Part shown: positions 1-7,008 of the stretch, piece after piece
Position numbering within the stretch: the stretch's first letter is position 1
Layout: each line of letters opens with the position of its first letter
DNA from: Nitrososphaerota archaeon
Lineage (GTDB): Archaea; Thermoproteota; Nitrososphaeria; Nitrososphaerales; UBA57
Length of the DNA stretch: 7,008 nucleotides
NCBI GenBank assembly: GCA_002713205.1
Contig: PAVW01000002.1
Coordinates: 1 to 7,008, forward strand
Reading direction: 5' to 3'
Notes under the pieces: generated by a model
What the model saw: the letters and a program-made list of their open reading frames with translations, nothing else
What the model was told of the DNA's origin: nothing
Databases searched by the model: none
Position numbers and translations under genes: made by a program

Positions 1-14
1 TTAAAGAGTTGAGC

Positions 15-1664
15 ATGAAAGTACTTCTCATAGTTCCTGAAATTCGTCTAGACATGTCTCCACAACATGTTCCATTTTGGGCAGGAATCTTAGGCGCCAT
101 TGTTGAAAAAAAAGGCGGAGATGTAGGTATTTTAGATCTAAATGCATTACGAATGAATTATGATGGTAACACAGTACCATCAAATGTTATAGTTGAAGAA
201 ATTAGTTCAGAAAAATGGGATATTGTTGGAATTGGAGGTCTAACTACAACATACAAAAGAATAAAACAACTTGCTCCATTGATTCGTAAATGTTGTCCTG
301 ATTCATTGTTTATTGGTGGGGGCGGTTGGAGCACATACAATCCAGATGAGATACTTGAACTTATTCCAGAATTGGATTTAATTGTAATAGGTGAAGGAGA
401 AGAGACCTTTTCAGAATTATATGATAATGTCAGTGATAATCAGACTGATTTTCGTGGAATTGCAGGATTATGTCTACGAGAGACTAACGAATTGTATTTT
501 ACAGCACCAAGAGCTCTAATTCCTGATCTAAATACAATCCCCTATCCATCATACGATCTATTTGAAAATGAAATTTATTTCAAATATTCATCGATTCCAA
601 TGTCAGTTGAATCTTATAATGCACAAAGACGATTTTCGGTGGTTTGGGAAAGAGGATGTCCACGGGGATGTACATTTTGTTCACATAACGGAATGTCCAG
701 GATAGACTTACAGAATATTTATGGTTCAGGAGACAGATTAAAAGGAGAAAAACGTGTTAGGAAAATAGATGAAGAAGAGGGAACATTTCAATTACCAGCA
801 AGATGGCCATCACCTCAGTATGCAGTTGATAACATAAAATTATTAGTTGACAAATATGATTGCGACTTTATTTCTATAATGGATGAAAATATGACTAGTA
901 ATTTGAAATGGACTAAAGAGTTCTGTACATTATACATGGATGAAGGTTTGGATAAAATTTTAAAATGGGGAACCCTAGGAGATGCACCTAGCGTAGCAAC
1001 AAAACCTTCAATTATTAAAACGATGCAAGATGCAGGTTGTGCTTACATTTCATTTGGATTTGAATCTGCATCAGATAGAGTTCTAAATGAGGATATACAA
1101 AAAGGACAGTTAAGATCTCATTTACAAACTACTATTAATACATTAAAAGAAGTAGGTATGACGCCAATTACTACATTCATGATTGGCAATCCAAATGAAG
1201 ACATTAACGACTTGATGGAAACGGTTGATTTTTGGATTAAAAATGGAGCAGAAGTAGATCCTTTCATTTGCACACCATATGTTGGAAGTCCTTTATTTTA
1301 CAATAATAGAGATTATGTTTTAGAACAATATGATGAAAGAATTCTATTAGTAAATCAAGGAAAGTTTTCAGTAGAAAATAGGATTCTAAAAAAAATGTAT
1401 TTAGAAGCATTGGATAAATTTATGGAAGATTGTGGCGATGCAACACAGTATACTGCAACTGTTAGTAAAAATTTTACAATTCCAGAATTAATTGCATTAA
1501 AACAATTCATGTATAATCATGATGTTCGAAGAATGCTTCAAATGGCAAACCAGAAGTATGAAGAAACAAAACTTCCACAATGGAAAGTAAGTGAAAAATG
1601 GAAAAAATATGATCCAAATCATAAAGCAAAAAAAGAATTAACTAAAATAATAGAATCTTTATGA
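15..1664 (+). CDS. B12-binding-domain radical SAM enzyme (class B radical SAM; possible cobalamin-dependent methyltransferase or rearrangement enzyme)
   Basis: Long ORF. The track starts at TTG 9, but the first ATG at 15 gives MKVLLIVPE, a typical N-terminus for this family. The frame is open to the window edge, so the start is not fully certain. The N-terminal ~140 aa follow the B12-binding domain pattern (KVLLIVPE...WDIVGIGGLTT...LFIGGGG...DLIVIGEGEETF). The radical SAM cluster motif C-PRG-C-TF-C (CX3CX2C) is encoded at 657-680, and downstream barrel-like motifs are present (ISFGFESASDRVL, FMIGNPNE). The stop overlaps the next start as ATGA at 1661-1664. Confidence 0.85.
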   Translation: MKVLLIVPEIRLDMSPQHVPFWAGILGAIVEKKGGDVGILDLNALRMNYDGNTVPSNVIVEEISSEKWDIVGIGGLTTTYKRIKQLAPLIRKCCPDSLFIGGGGWSTYNPDEILELIPELDLIVIGEGEETFSELYDNVSDNQTDFRGIAGLCLRETNELYFTAPRALIPDLNTIPYPSYDLFENEIYFKYSSIPMSVESYNAQRRFSVVWERGCPRGCTFCSHNGMSRIDLQNIYGSGDRLKGEKRVRKIDEEEGTFQLPARWPSPQYAVDNIKLLVDKYDCDFISIMDENMTSNLKWTKEFCTLYMDEGLDKILKWGTLGDAPSVATKPSIIKTMQDAGCAYISFGFESASDRVLNEDIQKGQLRSHLQTTINTLKEVGMTPITTFMIGNPNEDINDLMETVDFWIKNGAEVDPFICTPYVGSPLFYNNRDYVLEQYDERILLVNQGKFSVENRILKKMYLEALDKFMEDCGDATQYTATVSKNFTIPELIALKQFMYNHDVRRMLQMANQKYEETKLPQWKVSEKWKKYDPNHKAKKELTKIIESL

Positions 1665-2659
1665 GTACTCAAAGTAAAGAGCAACAACAAATAGGTTTTC
1701 TCTCATTATGCTATCATTACATTCGTCCAGATAATGATGATCCATTTTCAAGACTTATGGGTACAAAAATAACAGAATTTAAAAATCAAATTAAAATGTT
1801 AAAAGAGAAATTTGAAATGATTTCTTTAGATGATGTGTTAGAATTTATTAATGCTAAAATTTTTGAAAATAATAAATATAAAATGTTATTGACATTTGAT
1901 GATGGATTATCAGAGCATTACAATGCAGCGAAGATTTTAAAACAATTTGATATTAAAGCGACATTTTTTATTCCAACATGTATTCTGAAAGAAAGATTAC
2001 CAGCAAATCCTATGATAATTCATTACGTAATAGCAAAATATGGAATAGAAAAATTTTTAGAAGAATTTAGATATGCTTTAAAAAAACTTGGGCTGGAAAT
2101 AAAAAAATATGATATAACATATGTACGTGAAGATAATGACGTATGGAAAAAAATTGCTGAAATAAAATATAATTTCAAATACAAATTAGGATATAAAATA
2201 TCACGAGAAATACTTCTACATATTTATCAAAATTCTCTTCTAATAGAATACCCAAATATTTTAGAGATAATACATCTCAATAAAGAACAAATACATGAAA
2301 TGTTAGAGATGGGTCACAGAATTGGAGTTCATACACATACACATATTTCTGTAGCCGCAACAAGTTTATCAGATTCTGATTTTTTTAATGAAATTGTCTT
2401 TCCAAAAAAATATCTGGAAGATGAATTCAACGTTCCAATTAAATCATTTAGCTATCCATTTGGTGAAAGAAAGGATTATCTTTCATCTATGCGATTCTTA
2501 AATAAAACAAAAGAATATGATCTTGCTTTTACTGTAGAAGAAATAGTAAATTTTGGAAATACTCCATTGGAAATAGGAAGGTATCAGCCTATGAGTCATG
2601 ACAATGTAAGAACTTTAGAGAACAATTTATCTAACATAATTAAAAAAAATATTTTGTAA
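1661..2659 (+). CDS. Polysaccharide deacetylase family protein (NodB homology / CE4 fold; de-N-acetylase or deformylase)
   Basis: 332-aa ORF. NodB motif 1, LLTFDDGLSEHY, has TFDDG at 1892-1906 and is followed by ATFFIPT. The His-rich metal motif GVHTHTH (HxxxH) is at 2330-2344, and an FSYPFGE motif follows. About 90 aa of helical-looking insertion lie between motifs 1 and 2. The start overlaps the upstream stop (ATGA), and the stop overlaps the next start (TAATG at 2657-2661). Confidence 0.8.
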   Translation: MSTQSKEQQQIGFLSLCYHYIRPDNDDPFSRLMGTKITEFKNQIKMLKEKFEMISLDDVLEFINAKIFENNKYKMLLTFDDGLSEHYNAAKILKQFDIKATFFIPTCILKERLPANPMIIHYVIAKYGIEKFLEEFRYALKKLGLEIKKYDITYVREDNDVWKKIAEIKYNFKYKLGYKISREILLHIYQNSLLIEYPNILEIIHLNKEQIHEMLEMGHRIGVHTHTHISVAATSLSDSDFFNEIVFPKKYLEDEFNVPIKSFSYPFGERKDYLSSMRFLNKTKEYDLAFTVEEIVNFGNTPLEIGRYQPMSHDNVRTLENNLSNIIKKNIL

Positions 2660-3468
2660 TGAAGTTAGTTATTTTCACTAGTAATGGGATACGTCACAAA
2701 TACGTTGCAAACACACTTGCAAAATTTGTTGACGATATTTTGATTGTATCTGAATGTAGACAAAATGATGCTTCAGACAAAGAAACAGAAGGAAATCTTT
2801 CTCCAATAGATGAGCATTTTAGAAAACGATATTTGACTGAAAAAGTCATGTTTGCAGGAAATGATGTTTTCAAGGGAAATGTCCTACCTCTAGTTTACAA
2901 AGAAGCAAATTTGGAATATACATATCAAGTTGTAAAAGAGTTTGATCCGGATTTGATGATTGTGTTTGGTTCATCGATCATTAAAGAACCTCTTCTTTCA
3001 TTGAAACCTAATCGATTCATCAATCTTCATTTAGGATTATCTCCCTATTATCGAGGAAGCGGTACAAATTTTTGGCCTTTTGTTAATAAAGAATTGGAAT
3101 ATGTAGGTTCAACGATTTTACATTTAGATTCTGGTATTGACACGGGAGATATTCTTACTCACGTAAAACCTAATTTTGAAATTAATGATGATGTTCACAC
3201 AGTGGGATGCAAAGTAATTCAAGAAAGTGTGAATGTATTAAAAAAAATAATCGAGATGGTAAAGAAAAATACTGAATTAAATAGAATTAAGCAATGGGAA
3301 TTATCAGATTCAAAATATTATAAAAATAGTGATTTTAATGAAGAGATATTGAATTTATATAAAAAAAATTTGTCAGAAGGCTTGATAAAAAATTTTCTAG
3401 AAAAATCTGAAAATAAAATTAGAATCATCAACATAGATAATGATAAAAATGAGACAGACAGAAATTAA
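2659..3468 (+). CDS. Formyltransferase family protein (Formyl_trans_N fold; probable N10-formyl-tetrahydrofolate-dependent sugar N-formyltransferase)
   Basis: 269-aa ORF. The motif INLHLGLSPYYRGSG matches the canonical HxSLLPxYRG folate/catalytic loop, with the N-x-H codons at 3022-3030. The motif LDSGIDTGDIL supplies the catalytic Asp (codon at 3139-3141). The Asn-to-Asp spacing of 39 residues is close to that in Fmt/PurN-type enzymes. There is no obvious Fmt-type C-terminal tRNA-binding domain. Confidence 0.8.
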   Translation: MKLVIFTSNGIRHKYVANTLAKFVDDILIVSECRQNDASDKETEGNLSPIDEHFRKRYLTEKVMFAGNDVFKGNVLPLVYKEANLEYTYQVVKEFDPDLMIVFGSSIIKEPLLSLKPNRFINLHLGLSPYYRGSGTNFWPFVNKELEYVGSTILHLDSGIDTGDILTHVKPNFEINDDVHTVGCKVIQESVNVLKKIIEMVKKNTELNRIKQWELSDSKYYKNSDFNEEILNLYKKNLSEGLIKNFLEKSENKIRIINIDNDKNETDRN

Positions 3469-4225
3469 AGAAGCTGTAATAATTACTGCAAGAATTAGTT
3501 CAAAACGTCTTCCAAACAAGACTATAATGGAAGTAAAAGGTCTGAAATCAATTGAGATTACAATTGAAAGAGCTAAAAAAATTGGTCATCAAGTAATTTT
3601 AGCAACAAGTAATGATAAATTAGATGATGTCTTAGTTGATATCACAAAGAAATGTGGAATAGAAATTTTTAGAGGTTCACTTTCAAATAAAATTAAAAGA
3701 TGTCATGATTGTTTCAAAAAATTCAAGATTGATAATGCATTATTGATAGAAGGTGCTGACATTTGTTATGATTTTAATATTGGAATTAGAGCGTTAACTG
3801 AATTAAGAGAAACAGATTCAGAGATTATTTGGTGTCCAAAGGAGATAATTACAGGTCTTTTTACTTTGGCTATGAGTAAATCCGCAATAGAAGAATTGTA
3901 TGAGCTTGTTCCTTCAGAAAATTTTGATACTGATGTATTTACTCACTTATTTGATAAGATGAAGGCAAAAGTCTCATTTGTTAAATTAAATAAAAATGAA
4001 AAAAATAAAGAGATTAGATTAACTATAGATTATCAAGAAGATTTAGATTTTTTTAGGAAAGTTTATCAGAATTTTTCAATTACGGAAGATAGTTCAGTCA
4101 TAATCAAATATTTGTTAGAAAATCCATCAATATGTAAAATGAATTATTTTAGAGAAAAAGATTATCTTGAAAATAAAGAGAACATGATGAAAGATTTCAA
4201 CAATAATAAAAAAAATAGTGAGTAA
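3440..4225 (+). CDS. Cytidylyltransferase family protein (SpsF/NeuA-like; probable CMP-nonulosonate synthetase)
   Basis: 261-aa ORF. The N-terminal motif AVIITARISSKRLPNK matches the ARxxSxRLPxK signature of the CTP_transf_3 / SpsF (COG1861) group. The C-terminal motif RLTIDYQEDLDFFRKVY matches the conserved TxDxxEDxxxxR motif of the same group. The start is ambiguous: ATG at 3440 or ATG at 3449. Either one overlaps the 3' end of the formyltransferase gene, by 29 or 20 nt. Confidence 0.75.
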   Translation: MIKMRQTEIKEAVIITARISSKRLPNKTIMEVKGLKSIEITIERAKKIGHQVILATSNDKLDDVLVDITKKCGIEIFRGSLSNKIKRCHDCFKKFKIDNALLIEGADICYDFNIGIRALTELRETDSEIIWCPKEIITGLFTLAMSKSAIEELYELVPSENFDTDVFTHLFDKMKAKVSFVKLNKNEKNKEIRLTIDYQEDLDFFRKVYQNFSITEDSSVIIKYLLENPSICKMNYFREKDYLENKENMMKDFNNNKKNSE

Positions 4226-4267
4226 TTCGTATTAATAATATGTTTAAGTGGAAGTAATTATATTCAA
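4226..4267 (+). promoter_or_regulatory. Possible internal promoter in the only intergenic gap of the operon (TATA-like boxes)
   Basis: A 42-nt AT-rich gap lies between the cytidylyltransferase stop (4223-4225) and the first neuB ATG (4268). TAATAATA at 4233-4240 lies about 30 nt upstream of ATG 4268. TTATAT at 4258-4263 lies about 25 nt upstream of ATG 4286. That is the spacing expected for an archaeal TATA box driving a leaderless mRNA. TATA-like strings are frequent in DNA this AT-rich, so this is weak evidence. Confidence 0.25.
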
Positions 4268-5326
4268 ATGCTTAATTGTGTTTTTATGGATGAACCAGAA
4301 ATAGTTCTTGATTCTAAGAGAATTGGAAGAAAACATAGACCACTTGTGATAGCTGAAATTGGAATTAATCATGAGGGAAAAATTGAGAAAGCAAAAAAAA
4401 TGATACAAGATGTCTATGATGCAGGTGCAGAATGTGTAAAATTTCAATCACATATTATAGATGATGAAATGATTCCAACTGATGTGATTCCTGGAAATTC
4501 AGATGAGACAATCTGGGAGATTGTTAAGAGATGTTCGTTTTCAGAAAAGGATGAGATGTCATTAAAAAAATTTGTTGATAGTTTAGGAATGATTTATCTT
4601 TCAACACCATTTTCTCGTGAATCAGCTGACAGATTAGAAAGAATGAATGTTATCGGATATAAAATTGGTTCAGGAGAATGTAATAATTATCCATTAATTG
4701 AACATATTGCTGAATTTGGAAAACCCGTAATTATTAGTACTGGAATGAACGATATAGAAAGCATATCAAAAAGTGTTAAGATTTGTAGAGAATCAAATAT
4801 TCCATTTGCGTTGATGCATGTAACATCAATGTATCCAACTCCATACGAACATGTACGTCTTGGTGCCATGACACACATTGCAGAAGAATTTCCTGATGCA
4901 GTAATAGGTTTGAGCGACCATTCAATTGGTAATTACACATGTTTTGCAGGAGTTGCTTTAGGTGCATCAATTCTAGAAAAACATTTTACATCAGACAAGT
5001 CATGGAGTGGACCAGATGTTCCAATCTCAATTGATCCTAGTGAATTAAAAAATTTAATCAACGGAGTAGATTCCATTTATAAATCACTGGGAGGAAAAAA
5101 AGAAATTCTCTCAGAAGAGCAACCAACAATTAATTTTGCATATTCATGTGTTGTAGCAATCAGAGACATTGAGATTGGTGAAAATCTATCAAAAGAAAAT
5201 GTATGGGTCAAACGTCCAGGTACCGGAGAGATACTTGCAAAAGATTTTCAGAAAGTATTAGAATATAAAGCAAAAATGAAAATTTCTAAAAATACTCAGA
5301 TAAAGTGGAATATGATTGAAAAATAA
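4268..5326 (+). CDS. neuB: Nonulosonic acid synthase, NeuB family (N-acetylneuraminate / legionaminate synthase) with C-terminal SAF domain
   Basis: 352-aa ORF with the full set of NeuB family motifs: PLVIAEIGINHEG, AGAECVKFQSH, LSTPFS, YKIGSGE, VIISTGM, ALMHVTSMYP, GLSDHSIG, LEKHFT. A SAF-like C-terminus follows (VVAIRDIEIGENLSKENVWVKRPGTG). An alternative start at ATG 4286 (MDEPEIVL...) is equally plausible. The neuB symbol denotes the family only; the Neu versus Leg type is unresolved. Confidence 0.92.
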   Translation: MLNCVFMDEPEIVLDSKRIGRKHRPLVIAEIGINHEGKIEKAKKMIQDVYDAGAECVKFQSHIIDDEMIPTDVIPGNSDETIWEIVKRCSFSEKDEMSLKKFVDSLGMIYLSTPFSRESADRLERMNVIGYKIGSGECNNYPLIEHIAEFGKPVIISTGMNDIESISKSVKICRESNIPFALMHVTSMYPTPYEHVRLGAMTHIAEEFPDAVIGLSDHSIGNYTCFAGVALGASILEKHFTSDKSWSGPDVPISIDPSELKNLINGVDSIYKSLGGKKEILSEEQPTINFAYSCVVAIRDIEIGENLSKENVWVKRPGTGEILAKDFQKVLEYKAKMKISKNTQIKWNMIEK

Positions 5327-6446
5327 AAAATTAGTTTTCATTACAGGGACAAGAGCGGATTTTGGTAAATTAAAACCATTAATTGATGTTGTGGAAAATT
5401 CAGATTTGTTTGATTGTTACATTTTTGCAACAGGTATGCATACATTAAAGAGATATGGTCATACATATTCTGAAATTAAAAAACAAAAATACAAAAATTT
5501 GATTGTATATAAAAATCAGAAAAATTCTGATCATGATTTGATTTTGGCTGATACAATTAAGGGTTTTTCAAAATTTGTTAAAGAAATCAAACCAGATATG
5601 ATAATTGTTCATGGAGATAGATTAGAACCACTTGCAGGTGCGATTGTAGGATTATTCAGTGGAGTACTAGTAGGGCACATAGAAGGGGGAGAAATATCAG
5701 GCACAGTGGATGAGATAATTAGACATGGTATAACCAAATTATCACACATTCATTTTGTATCAAATTTAGAAGCAAAAAAAAGAATTATGCAGATGGGTGA
5801 AAATACAAAATCATCTTTCATCATAGGTTCTCCAGAAATTGAAATAATGAAAGAAAGTATACTACCAAAAATACAAGATACAAAAATGAGATATAATATT
5901 CCATACGAGTCTTACGCAATTTTTATTTTTCATCCAGTTGTTACAGAATTTCATAGTACTAGAAAACAGATAAAACAAATTATTTTGGGATTAAAAGAAT
6001 CTAAGAGGAAATTTATTATAATTTATCCAAATAATGATAAAGGTTCAGATATTATAATTGAAGAGATTAAGAAATTAAGAGGAAATAAAAATTTTAGAAT
6101 TTTTCCATCATTAAGATTCAAATATTTTTTGTCATTATTGAAAAATGCTGATTTTGTGATAGGAAATTCTAGTACAGTAGTTAGAGAAGCTGAGGTTTAT
6201 GGTACTCCTGCTATCAATATAGGAACAAGACAAAATAATAGAAATAAAAATAAAGAAATAATTAATATTTTTCCAAATAGAAATGAAATACTTAAAGTAA
6301 TACAAAAAATTAATGGAAAAAGATTCAAACCAAAATCATATTTTTATCCTGTTAAGAGTTGTTCTGCTGAATTTTATAAAATTTTATTAAAAGATGAGAT
6401 ATGGAAAATTAATTTACAAAAACAGTTTAAGGATATTAAAATTTAA
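5316..6446 (+). CDS. neuC: UDP-N-acetylglucosamine 2-epimerase, hydrolysing type (NeuC/LegG family)
   Basis: 376-aa ORF. The N-terminus KKLVFITGTRADFGKLKPL, the HGDRLEPLAGA motif, and HIEGGEISGTVDEIIRHGITKLSHIHF match the NeuC-type GGE..G..DE..RH..TK.SH.HF signature rather than the non-hydrolysing WecB-type signature. The start must be TTG at 5316, because an in-frame TGA sits at 5313-5315 and the next ATG is codon 41. The gene overlaps the neuB 3' end by 11 nt. Confidence 0.9.
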   Translation: MKNKKLVFITGTRADFGKLKPLIDVVENSDLFDCYIFATGMHTLKRYGHTYSEIKKQKYKNLIVYKNQKNSDHDLILADTIKGFSKFVKEIKPDMIIVHGDRLEPLAGAIVGLFSGVLVGHIEGGEISGTVDEIIRHGITKLSHIHFVSNLEAKKRIMQMGENTKSSFIIGSPEIEIMKESILPKIQDTKMRYNIPYESYAIFIFHPVVTEFHSTRKQIKQIILGLKESKRKFIIIYPNNDKGSDIIIEEIKKLRGNKNFRIFPSLRFKYFLSLLKNADFVIGNSSTVVREAEVYGTPAINIGTRQNNRNKNKEIINIFPNRNEILKVIQKINGKRFKPKSYFYPVKSCSAEFYKILLKDEIWKINLQKQFKDIKI

Positions 6447-6463
6447 TATTTTAAAATTTTTTT
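6436..6463. terminator. Possible shared terminator between convergent genes (weak AT-only hairpin plus T7 run)
   Basis: TTAAAAT (6436-6442) and ATTTTAA (6448-6454) form a 7-bp inverted repeat around a 5-nt loop (TTAAT). A T7 run follows at 6457-6463 on the + strand. The stem is all A-T and overlaps both stop codons, so its stability is low. The oligo-T run alone could act as an archaeal-type terminator. Confidence 0.2.
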
Positions 6464-7008
6464 ATTAGATAAAAAGTGGTTTTTGCTGTTGTGGCAATAA
6501 CTAAACTCCATGCTACTCCAGTTATTCCAAACCAACTTCCTAAAACAATCATTCCTATAGTTAGAAAAACTAACGAGATGCCAGTACCGATAATTACAAT
6601 TTTACTTTTCTCTTTCCCTAAAAACTGTGCTTCGAGAATTAATGCAATACTACCAGGTATTACTACTAAACTCATTATCTTAATTGCATCAATAGCTTCG
6701 ATGAATTTAGGAAAGAAGTTTTCAACTAACATTGGCGCAATAAATATACCTAAAATAGATATGAAAATTGAAAAAATTATAAGAAAAATCTTCACTTGTT
6801 TGTTGCTAGTTCCTGTTGATTCTTCAGGAAGTAAATATTTGTAAAGAATACTTGGAAATATCATCATTACATTAATTATTTGAAGAGCAAGACTGTAATT
6901 GCCTAAAATCGCAAAACCTAGAAGTGGTGCTACAATAATTTTATCAACTTGGCCTCCTCCAATTGCACCCGTTAAGATGAATGTAAAATAATTATTTGTG
7001 ATAAATCC
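6451..7008 (-). CDS. Polysaccharide/oligosaccharide flippase, Wzx-like (MOP superfamily), C-terminal part; 5' end lies beyond the window
   Basis: The stop TAA is the reverse complement of 6451-6453. The track lists only 6451-6867 from an internal Met. My hand translation of the reverse complement of 6868-7008 in the same frame has no stop (GFITNNYFTFILTGAIGGGQVDKIIVAPLLGFAILGNYSLALQIINV-MMIFPSILYKYLLPE...). The protein is a series of hydrophobic helices, and the G.Y..A..I......P pattern is typical of Polysacc_synt family flippases. Confidence 0.75.
   Translation of the reverse strand, partial: GFITNNYFTFILTGAIGGGQVDKIIVAPLLGFAILGNYSLALQIINVMMIFPSILYKYLLPEESTGTSNKQVKIFLIIFSIFISILGIFIAPMLVENFFPKFIEAIDAIKIMSLVVIPGSIALILEAQFLGKEKSKIVIIGTGISLVFLTIGMIVLGSWFGITGVAWSLVIATTAKTTFYLIKKF

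Follow-up and report, generated by a model that had tools for sequence, protein, structure and literature searches.

A conserved deacetylase/formyltransferase gene pair in nonulosonic acid loci of archaea and bacteria may replace an N-acetyl by an N-formyl group

Nonulosonic acids (NulOs) cap many microbial surfaces, where the N-acyl groups that they carry determine charge as well as recognition by phages and by the immune system. The variation known at these groups comes either from amines made by aminotransferases, which receive acetyl, formyl, hydroxybutyryl or glyceroyl substituents, or from amidation of the acetamide. The locus described here raises the question of what a deacetylase and a formyltransferase, encoded back to back, could be doing in a NulO operon. 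It is found in a stretch of 7,008 nucleotides (hereafter, the window) of a Nitrososphaerota archaeon (GenBank assembly GCA_002713205.1, contig PAVW01000002.1, positions 1 to 7,008 of the forward strand), where ORF2 (1661..2659, + strand, 332 amino acids), a putative de-N-acetylase of the CE4/NodB fold, is followed by ORF3 (2659..3468, + strand, 269 amino acids), a stand-alone protein of the formyltransferase (FT) fold. A first-pass annotation of this DNA had put forward two models, namely an exchange of an acetyl for a formyl group, and an Arn-like cycle in which formylation is transient; it omitted a third, in which the two enzymes work on different nitrogens and leave one free amine and one formamide. 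The exchange is the best-supported reading of the three, and we infer it with about an even chance of being right. What is new here is that the CE4 and FT genes form a conserved, co-evolving cassette; N-acyl tailoring of NulOs, which the cassette extends, was already known.

The identities first proposed for the two genes were upheld by Pfam, as ORF2 matches Polysacc_deac_1 (PF01522) with 61.2 bits (cut-off 23.1) and ORF3 matches Formyl_trans_N (PF00551) with 44.8 bits (cut-off 26.1). Reading of the sequence also confirmed the junction already described, in which the stop codon of ORF2 (TAA, 2657-2659) and the start codon of ORF3 (ATG, 2659-2661) share one nucleotide within TAATG at 2657..2661 of the + strand, an arrangement consistent with translational coupling. 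Two further overlaps had been passed over: the ORF1 stop and the ORF2 start meet in ATGA at 1661-1664, and ORF3 and ORF4 overlap by 29 nt. ORF5 and ORF6 overlap too, and the pair is embedded in one tightly packed operon of six co-directional genes on the + strand. The minus strand of 1661-3468 holds no ORF of at least 60 amino acids, nor did scans of the sequence turn up any Rfam family or meaningful repeat. Taken alone, one overlapping junction is weak evidence, as such junctions are frequent in compact genomes; a conserved overlap is not.

To see how the pair is arranged elsewhere, 105 loci were gathered by looking up exact proteins and by scanning genomes and metagenomes, and annotated with seed proteins; the scan of the genome collection, run with a single protein query, gave 6 loci. 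The FTs of these loci (designated here by L numbers) fall into 78 clusters at 95% identity. A CE4 gene adjoins the FT gene in 67 of the 78 clusters, within 150 bp in 65 of them and, in L078 and L087, with the CE4 gene overlapping the FT start. The remaining 11 clusters are contig-truncated, undetermined, or have their CE4 gene farther away (760 bp upstream in L007, downstream in L011), and every locus that is sufficiently covered on both flanks has a CE4 gene within 1 kb of the FT gene. The order is CE4-FT in 61 of the adjacent clusters, FT-CE4 in 4 and convergent in 2. Moreover, the two genes overlap at 51 of the 65 junctions measured, most often by 4 nt (30 junctions, ATGA type) and at 8 junctions by a single nucleotide; at 63 of the 65 they are no more than 15 nt apart. 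The inverted FT-CE4 order belongs to a divergent branch of Flavobacteriaceae and relatives (FT 35-39% and CE4 23-25% identical), which retains all catalytic motifs (YHY, TFDDG and HTxxH) as well as a helical insert described below.

The two proteins also appear to have diverged together. Pairwise-identity matrices of FT and CE4 correlate with r = 0.865 over 53 loci, a value that a far outgroup inflates somewhat, although its contrast with the other gene pairs stands: FT-NeuB gives 0.49, FT-NeuC 0.21 and NeuB-NeuC 0.74. Because the FT-CE4 matrices correlate at 0.865 against 0.49 and 0.21, CE4 and FT seem to co-evolve and to be inherited as a unit, and CE4-FT and NeuB-NeuC would behave as two cassettes shuffled relative to one another. 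No CE4-FT fusion or other Rosetta-stone fusion was found in the 105 loci or among the 150 best representatives; one protein of 406 amino acids carries an N-terminal extension with no Pfam match.

Named carriers of the cassette include Ca. Nitrosotenuis, Nitrososphaeraceae, a Planctomycetales metagenome-assembled genome, Ca. Yanofskybacteria, Saccharibacteria and Flavobacteriaceae; the cassette is thus spread over Thaumarchaeota, Candidate Phyla Radiation bacteria, Planctomycetes and Flavobacteria, usually near genes for a cytidine monophosphate (CMP) transferase, NeuB and NeuC. The assignment to Thaumarchaeota is based on the homologues in Ca. Nitrosotenuis and Nitrososphaeraceae. For the cassette, the searches gave more than 591 metagenome matches and 1963 protein clusters at 90% identity; the ORF3 family comprises, at 50% identity and E <= 1e-30, 397 clusters, all of stand-alone proteins of about 260-280 amino acids. 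With such numbers, the earlier view that the combination is unusual for a NeuB/NeuC-type cluster had to be given up, as NulO clusters from the environment often contain the cassette. In the literature, we found no paper on a CE4/FT pair in NulO clusters. The viral contig collection yielded one weak FT relative, truncated and 32% identical (L105, IMGVR_UViG_3300028925_012645), and the cassette is essentially cellular.

We then turned to the deacetylase. The statement of the first-pass annotation that both proteins keep their catalytic and metal-binding motifs extends to their homologues. Across 47 homologues of ORF2 (44-89% identity), the residues Y18-H19-Y20, T78-F79-D80-D81, H224 and H228 are invariant; D80/D81 provide the putative catalytic base and metal-binding Asp, H224 and H228 are the predicted metal histidines of the HTxxH motif, and H19 lies in the YHY motif. 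In a profile alignment, H19 falls on His55 of PgaB (WH motif, chain position 14) and D80/D81 on D114/D115 of PgaB. As judged from its sequence, ORF2 is of the PgaB-type arrangement, in which the catalytic His comes from the first, N-terminal strand. The AlphaFold2 model (pLDDT 92.9) is a distorted (beta/alpha) barrel, matched by Foldseek with probability 1.00 to 13 CE4 chains. The top matches are PplD (6dq3, E 1.9e-13), PgaB, IcaB and BpsB, with E from 1.9e-13 to 5e-8 (the first three between 1e-13 and 1e-10), and the model places ORF2 structurally in this subclass of de-N-acetylases, with which it shares the barrel, an Asp-His-His metal triad, the catalytic Asp and the N-terminal catalytic His. 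The acetylxylan esterases 7fbw and 7ax7 match as well, ranking far below the de-N-acetylases. The PgaB equivalog model scores ORF2 at 38.5 bits against a cut-off of 321.9, and ORF2 would resemble PgaB/IcaB/PplD-type enzymes in its predicted working, not as an orthologue. ArnD was also considered and rejected as an identity: in Foldseek, 8t0j is only at rank 43 (E 0.069, query TM-score (TMq) 0.31), no ArnD model is among the NCBIfam matches at E <= 0.01, and ArnD is absent from the profile-versus-PDB matches.

ORF2 also differs from these relatives in several respects. PgaB/IcaB/PplD-type enzymes are extracytoplasmic and act on an exported polymer or a lipid-linked glycan, whereas ORF2 has no signal peptide, membrane anchor or transmembrane segment (maximum Kyte-Doolittle value over 19 residues (KD19) 0.87), is predicted to be cytoplasmic, is paired with an FT, and presumably meets a soluble substrate. 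Furthermore, between TFDDG and HTxxH it carries an all-helical insert of about 95 residues (approximately 109-202, window 1985-2266), which is confidently modelled, has invariant residues of its own (P114, P117, Y122, K169, Y174 and R182), is absent from PplD and is retained in the distant Flavobacteria-type partners. In the model, this insert is a candidate substrate lid. Both ORF2 and ORF3 are under purifying selection, with dN/dS of 0.13-0.18 and 0.08-0.12, respectively, at an unsaturated dS of about 0.5-1.

In ORF3, the Asn-His-Asp triad (N122/H124/D161) is invariant in 44 homologues; in a set of 40 representatives (28-58% identity), neither H124 nor D161 varies, N122 is kept in at least 90%, and a clade signature of T7, R12, H13, H53 and E61 is found as well. 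The donor is presumably N10-formyl-tetrahydrofolate, as the triad and a PDxxxVFG / HxGxSPxYRG scaffold are conserved. No signal or membrane segment was seen in the hydropathy of ORF3. The model (pLDDT 90.6) matches Fmt, WbkC and ArnA in Foldseek with E of about 1e-12; the formyltransferase classes are matched about equally and are not separated. Against NCBIfam, ORF3 stays under every curated family cut-off: it scores 45.6 bits with ArnA (cut-off 777), 41.5 with Fmt (TIGR00460, cut-off 201.5) and 26.9 with PurN (TIGR00639, cut-off 150.1). A firm grouping with Fmt or PurN, which the first-pass annotation had held out as the finding that would overturn its proposal, was not seen. Fmt was rejected as an identity on this score, on the lack of any Pfam match to Formyl_trans_C and on the length of only 269 amino acids, and PurN on its score.

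A profile of the ORF3 family, searched against the PDB, found sugar N-formyltransferases at 42-48 bits (QdtF-type 4xcz, the ArnA N-domain at 46.6, WlaRD, WbkC, and PseJ, PDB 6ci2), Fmt at 35.7 and the best PurN at 31; the margin is small. ORF3 would therefore form a distinct, deep clade that is nearest, by that small margin, to the sugar N-formyltransferases. It shares with these (WlaRD, 4xcz, WbkC, VioF, WbtJ, the ArnA N-domain and PseJ) the Formyl_trans_N fold and the triad. The relationship is nevertheless remote, with about 20% identity and TMq of 0.5-0.6, and ORF3 differs in its signature residues (R12, H13, H53 and E61), in lacking an ankyrin or Formyl_trans_C-type C-terminal domain, and in having a deacetylase, not an aminotransferase, as its partner. 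N-formylated NulOs do exist in nature, as had been pointed out. N-formyl pseudaminic acids occur in Pseudomonas aeruginosa. In Halorubrum, 5-N-formyl-legionaminic acid has been reported, along with a predicted formyltransferase and no deacetylase (PMC6137143). PseJ and the predicted Halorubrum enzyme are formyltransferases of NulO pathways, as is proposed here for ORF3.

The remaining genes of the operon indicate which sugar the pair might serve. ORF5 (4268..5326, + strand, 352 amino acids) is a NeuB-type nonulosonic acid synthase (Pfam NeuB, 236 bits, plus SAF), with 399 bits (E 1e-118) to NeuB of Neisseria meningitidis (1xuu) and 348.6 bits to TIGR03569 (NeuB_NnaB), under the cut-off of 399.65. 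ORF6 (5316..6446, + strand, 376 amino acids) is a hydrolysing UDP-HexNAc 2-epimerase of the NeuC type (TIGR03568, 385 bits, cut-off 235.9), whose best PDB matches are equidistant, namely LegG of Acinetobacter baumannii (5zlr, 163.5 bits) and human GNE (161.7 bits). ORF4 (3440..4225, + strand, 261 amino acids) is a CTP_transf_3 cytidylyltransferase (Pfam, 54.7 bits) and a putative CMP-NulO synthetase, SpsF/PseF-like, with weak NCBIfam matches to KdsB and PseF and a PDB match to 6oew (E 6e-12). A sialic-acid-type pathway set of synthase, hydrolysing 2-epimerase and CMP-transferase is therefore complete in one operon; the type of backbone, neuraminic (Neu) or legionaminic (Leg), does not seem readable from the ORF5 and ORF6 proteins.

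Similar genes surround the pair elsewhere. Among 36 non-redundant loci of at least 9 kb, the commonest neighbour is a CTP_transf_3 gene (29/36, 81%), followed by NeuB (64%, with 13 of 36 loci having no NeuB in range) and NeuC-type epimerases (56%). Genes for proteins with B12-binding and radical SAM domains (B12-rSAM) occur in 16/36 (44%), Capsule_synth genes in 39%, DegT genes in 13/36 (36%), MptE-like genes in 10/36 (28%) and a second, Fmt/ArnA-like formyltransferase in 7/36 (19%). DegT is absent from 15 of the 23 loci that contain NeuB. Some operons consist of the pair and NulO genes only, with no aminotransferase or 4,6-dehydratase (L010, L102, L015 and L048): L010 and L102 read CTP-FT-CE4-NeuB-NeuC, and the compact operon of L015 reads CE4-FT-NeuB-NeuC-rSAM-rSAM-O-methyltransferase-CTP, abutting PNPase, dUTPase and FtsK genes, with no DegT.

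Look-ups with the exact sequences of ORF3, ORF5 and ORF6 gave no match. The wider surroundings of the window were reached through a 99%-identical CE4 protein (P0122), the view ending at an adh_short gene at the right end of the contig; the window is 99.5% identical to positions 5959-12966 of L021. To the left of the window genes, this glycosylation island contains, in order, an IF-2B/MtnA-like gene, a PGI-like gene, a glycosyltransferase (GT2), a KedN5-like B12-rSAM gene, a 59-amino-acid ORF and an MptE-like gene. To the right, mostly on the opposite strand, it contains a flippase-like gene, a Capsule_synth gene, a fragment of a NeuD/PglD-family acetyltransferase gene and a second NeuC gene and, further on, genes for a WbuX N-acetyl-sugar amidotransferase, a PseF-like cytidylyltransferase and a short-chain dehydrogenase/reductase (SDR). 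In the island (L021-L024), covered from about 7.6 kb upstream of the pair to 10 kb beyond it, neither a DegT gene nor an extended-SDR gene (4,6-dehydratase type) was found.

Altogether, the reading that we favour, at even chances, is that the pair would deacetylate and then formylate the same nitrogen of the NulO made by the operon. The metal-dependent CE4 enzyme would remove the N-acetyl group inherited from UDP-N-acetylglucosamine (UDP-GlcNAc), on the nitrogen destined to become N5 of the nonulosonic acid, and the FT would formylate the freed amine with N10-formyl-tetrahydrofolate; with NeuC, NeuB and the cytidylyltransferase, this would give a CMP-activated 5-N-formyl nonulosonic acid, most simply that of 5-N-formylneuraminic acid (CMP-Neu5Fo). 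We infer the order of the reactions, their common nitrogen and the formyl donor. N10-formyl-tetrahydrofolate is cytoplasmic and both proteins are predicted to be soluble, for which reason both steps would take place in the cytoplasm, on precursors and not on the exported glycan. As no aminotransferase was found within about 10 kb of the pair in the window's island, nor in most loci with NeuB, the amine freed by the CE4 enzyme is there the only one visible for the FT; this, together with the near-obligatory adjacency, the probable translational coupling and the co-evolution, makes a shared nitrogen the most economical explanation. The closeness of ORF5 to NeuB of N. meningitidis also appears to count in its favour, as do the natural N-formyl NulOs named above and the CMP-NulOs with formyl groups and free amines in Ca. 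Kuenenia.

The level at which the exchange takes place could be UDP-GlcNAc, N-acetylmannosamine (ManNAc), the free NulO or the CMP-NulO. The context of L012 hints at the nucleotide-hexosamine level, and the flanking CTP_transf_3 genes, along with CMP-sugar data from Ca. Kuenenia stuttgartiensis discussed below, hint at the CMP level. Removal of an acetyl group followed by re-acylation is a logic familiar from LpxC/LpxD of lipid A synthesis and from NDST of heparan sulfate, in which the N-acetyl group coming from UDP-GlcNAc is removed and the amine derivatised anew; those enzymes differ from the pair in protein family, in acyl or sulfate donor and in substrate.

Several observations weigh against an exchange on one nitrogen. 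Other amines are available in the loci with DegT (13/36) or with a second Fmt/ArnA-like formyltransferase (7/36). In the window's own island, the NeuD/PglD-type gene, the second NeuC and WbuX hint at a diamino, Leg-type sugar, for which the dehydratase and the aminotransferase could lie beyond the end of the contig. In L012-L014 the pair may act on a hexosamine nucleotide and not on a NulO. To our knowledge, all characterised relatives of the CE4 enzyme act on polymers or lipid-linked sugars, and none on soluble nucleotide sugars. In addition, no report of natural Neu5Fo was found in the searched literature.

The first alternative to be weighed makes use of two nitrogens, and we consider it rather unlikely overall. 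According to it, the FT formylates an amine derived from an aminotransferase (for instance, N7 of a 5,7-diamino NulO), thereby replacing an acetyltransferase of the LegH/PseH type, and the CE4 enzyme frees N5; the product would be a zwitterionic NulO with one formamide and one free amine. As far as is known, the characterised sugar N-formyltransferases all use amines generated by aminotransferases, and a DegT gene lies near the pair in more than a third of the large loci, as in the FT-CTP-DegT arrangement of L030, L031 and L037. The window's island, moreover, has the PglD/LegH-family acetyltransferase fragment, the second NeuC/LegG-like gene and WbuX, which are typical of Leg pathways.

A precedent of exactly that composition comes from Ca. 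Kuenenia stuttgartiensis, in which CMP-NulOs carrying a formyl group and a free amine were detected by mass spectrometry (SugarBase preprint, bioRxiv 10.64898/2026.04.20.719630). Its gene cluster reads legB-legF-legC-deacetylase-WbqC-formyltransferase-neuB-legF-legG; according to the supplement, the deacetylase is a PIG-L protein (KSMBR1_RS09835), and RS09840 encodes WbqC. These genes were linked to the sugars solely by their position, without enzymology (bioRxiv 10.64898/2026.04.20.719630). The likeness to our locus is that deacetylase and formyltransferase genes stand among genes of NulO biosynthesis. However, the Kuenenia deacetylase is a PIG-L/LmbE protein and not a CE4 enzyme, WbqC stands between the two genes, and legB and legC are present, unlike in the window, which has a CE4 gene and no WbqC. 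Homology of the Kuenenia deacetylase with ORF2 was accordingly rejected, and on the deacetylase side the precedent is analogous, not homologous. In contrast to what two nitrogens would require, no aminotransferase or 4,6-dehydratase is found in about 18 kb around the window's pair, nor in the four operons made of the pair and NulO genes only, and a correlation of 0.865 with near-obligatory adjacency is harder to explain if the enzymes serve different nitrogens. Overall, two nitrogens are a plausible reading of the loci with DegT and might also apply to the genome of the window if legB and legC lie beyond the contig.

Returning to the substrate, it is also conceivable, although improbable in our view, that the cassette targets a hexosamine in the glycan and not the NulO (UDP-GlcNAc to UDP-GlcN to UDP-GlcNFo, or a bacillosamine-type sugar), the link with NeuB and NeuC reflecting a shared island. 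Known sugar N-formyltransferases use nucleoside-diphosphate hexosamines, the immediate neighbours of the pair are variable, and NeuB is out of range in the 13 large loci counted above. The clearest case is L012-L014 (6722-13782), where the pair is flanked by a Wzz/tyrosine-kinase gene on one side and GT2-DegT-Bac_transf on the other, and where NeuB, NeuC and CTP_transf_3 genes are all absent within 10 kb of it; the cassette may thus not be restricted to nonulosonic acids. Against a hexosamine substrate stand the commonest neighbours, which are CTP_transf_3, NeuB and NeuC-type epimerases, and the operons of L010, L102, L015 and L048. A UDP-GlcNAc substrate upstream of NeuC would merge this alternative with the exchange on one nitrogen.

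The second model of the first-pass annotation fared worse, and we regard it as very unlikely. In it, formylation of an amino sugar by the FT would be transient and serve to drive a transfer step or some earlier one, after which the CE4 enzyme would take the formyl group off again and leave a free amine on the mature glycan. ArnA and ArnD do provide a precedent of the same two superfamilies cooperating on one amino sugar, the formyltransferase of ArnA being followed by ArnD, itself a CE4 enzyme, and the ArnA N-domain ranks near the top with the FT profile. They nonetheless formylate and then deformylate, after a transamination, and ArnD is a divergent, membrane-associated CE4 enzyme that acts on a lipid-linked sugar at the membrane; ORF2 has no membrane segment and is not ArnD-like, with its canonical TFDDG and PgaB-type His. 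Furthermore, most loci lack an aminotransferase, so that there is no equilibrium to be pulled, and there is no amine without prior deacetylation. Finally, it is hardly credible that one partner has another chemistry, the CE4 enzyme as an O-acetyl esterase on an O-acetylated NulO, as the acetylxylan esterases of its family would allow, or the FT in other acyl transfer or as a formyl-tetrahydrofolate hydrolase, with the Asn-His-Asp triad that it shares with the hydrolase domain of 10-formyl-tetrahydrofolate dehydrogenase (4qpd), since the closest CE4 structures are all de-N-acetylases and such roles do not explain an obligatory pairing of the two families.

If the exchange on one nitrogen is correct, the cassette adds an "erase and rewrite" route for the nitrogen that every NulO inherits from UDP-GlcNAc. 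A broader claim, which we regard as doubtful, is that the cassette is a widespread and previously unrecognised cytoplasmic route to Neu5Fo or another 5-N-formyl NulO, by which marine archaea (probably thaumarchaeal), Candidate Phyla Radiation bacteria, Planctomycetes and Flavobacteria would diversify their surface glycans; its CE4 enzyme would be the first one known with a sugar or nucleotide sugar in soluble form as substrate, the helical insert serving as its lid. The carriers' glycans are essentially uncharacterised, and a cassette that is abundant in marine metagenomes and sits in a variable glycosylation island of what is probably an ammonia oxidiser offers a handle on the diversification of surface glycans. 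The pair also supplies candidate enzymes for the chemo-enzymatic synthesis of N-formyl or free-amine sialic acids.

Other genes around the pair bear on the same glycan. ORF1 (9..1664, + strand, 551 amino acids) is a B12-rSAM protein (Pfam B12-binding 51.6 bits, Radical_SAM 57.1 bits), 71% identical to a homologue of Ca. Nitrosotenuis in L003; its NCBIfam matches to B12-rSAM methylases are sub-threshold, and it is probably a cobalamin-dependent methyltransferase tailoring the same sugar. The counterpart of ORF1 in L021 lies at 5973-7622, and the island has a second B12-rSAM protein at 2551-4602, which is KedN5-like (683 amino acids, 188 bits). The B12-rSAM genes near the pair suggest cobalamin-dependent C-methylation of that sugar. 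Wherever it was seen, an MptE-like gene (PF01973) stands directly beside a B12-rSAM gene, as at 4929-5918 and 5973-7622 of L021, with a weak match to PseD (Maf-type flagellin modification, 34 bits); the same two genes are found in L003, L006, L017, L030, L037, L056, L067, L075 and L098. They make up a second conserved two-gene unit, possibly of a NulO transferase and a modifier.

At the other end of the window, the convergent gene at 6451..7008 (- strand) is the C-terminal part of a multi-pass membrane protein of 377 amino acids (maximum KD19 2.79), whose full gene is found at 12409-13542 of L021; with a faint match to Polysacc_synt (E 0.018), it probably encodes a Wzx-like flippase belonging to this glycosylation island. 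Beyond it, at 15069-17707 and 17842-18537 of L021, come the genes for the NeuD/PglD protein (131 amino acids, truncated-looking), the second NeuC (408 bits), WbuX (281 bits, above its cut-off) and the PseF-like cytidylyltransferase. This set looks like a second NulO branch beside the formyl branch, and one that is probably acetamidino-forming.

Elsewhere, a second formyltransferase, Fmt/ArnA-like (Formyl_trans_N plus Formyl_trans_C, about 341 amino acids), adjoins the cassette or is convergent with it, often together with DegT (L017 10768-11793, L053, L065, L069, L070, L073, L093 and L096); islands of this kind may add a second formyl group or place formyl on two separate sugars. In Nitrosotenuis-like loci, sulfatase-family genes flank the cassette (L003 2827-4212 and 10403-11515; L017 2645-5160) and could encode sulfatases or phospho-transferases acting on the same glycan. 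Lastly, the IF-2B/MtnA-like gene at the left border of the window's island (L023 320-1357) has more than 120 distinct metagenomic variants, with 91-100% identity, which indicates a very abundant and micro-diverse marine population of which the glycosylation island is the variable part.

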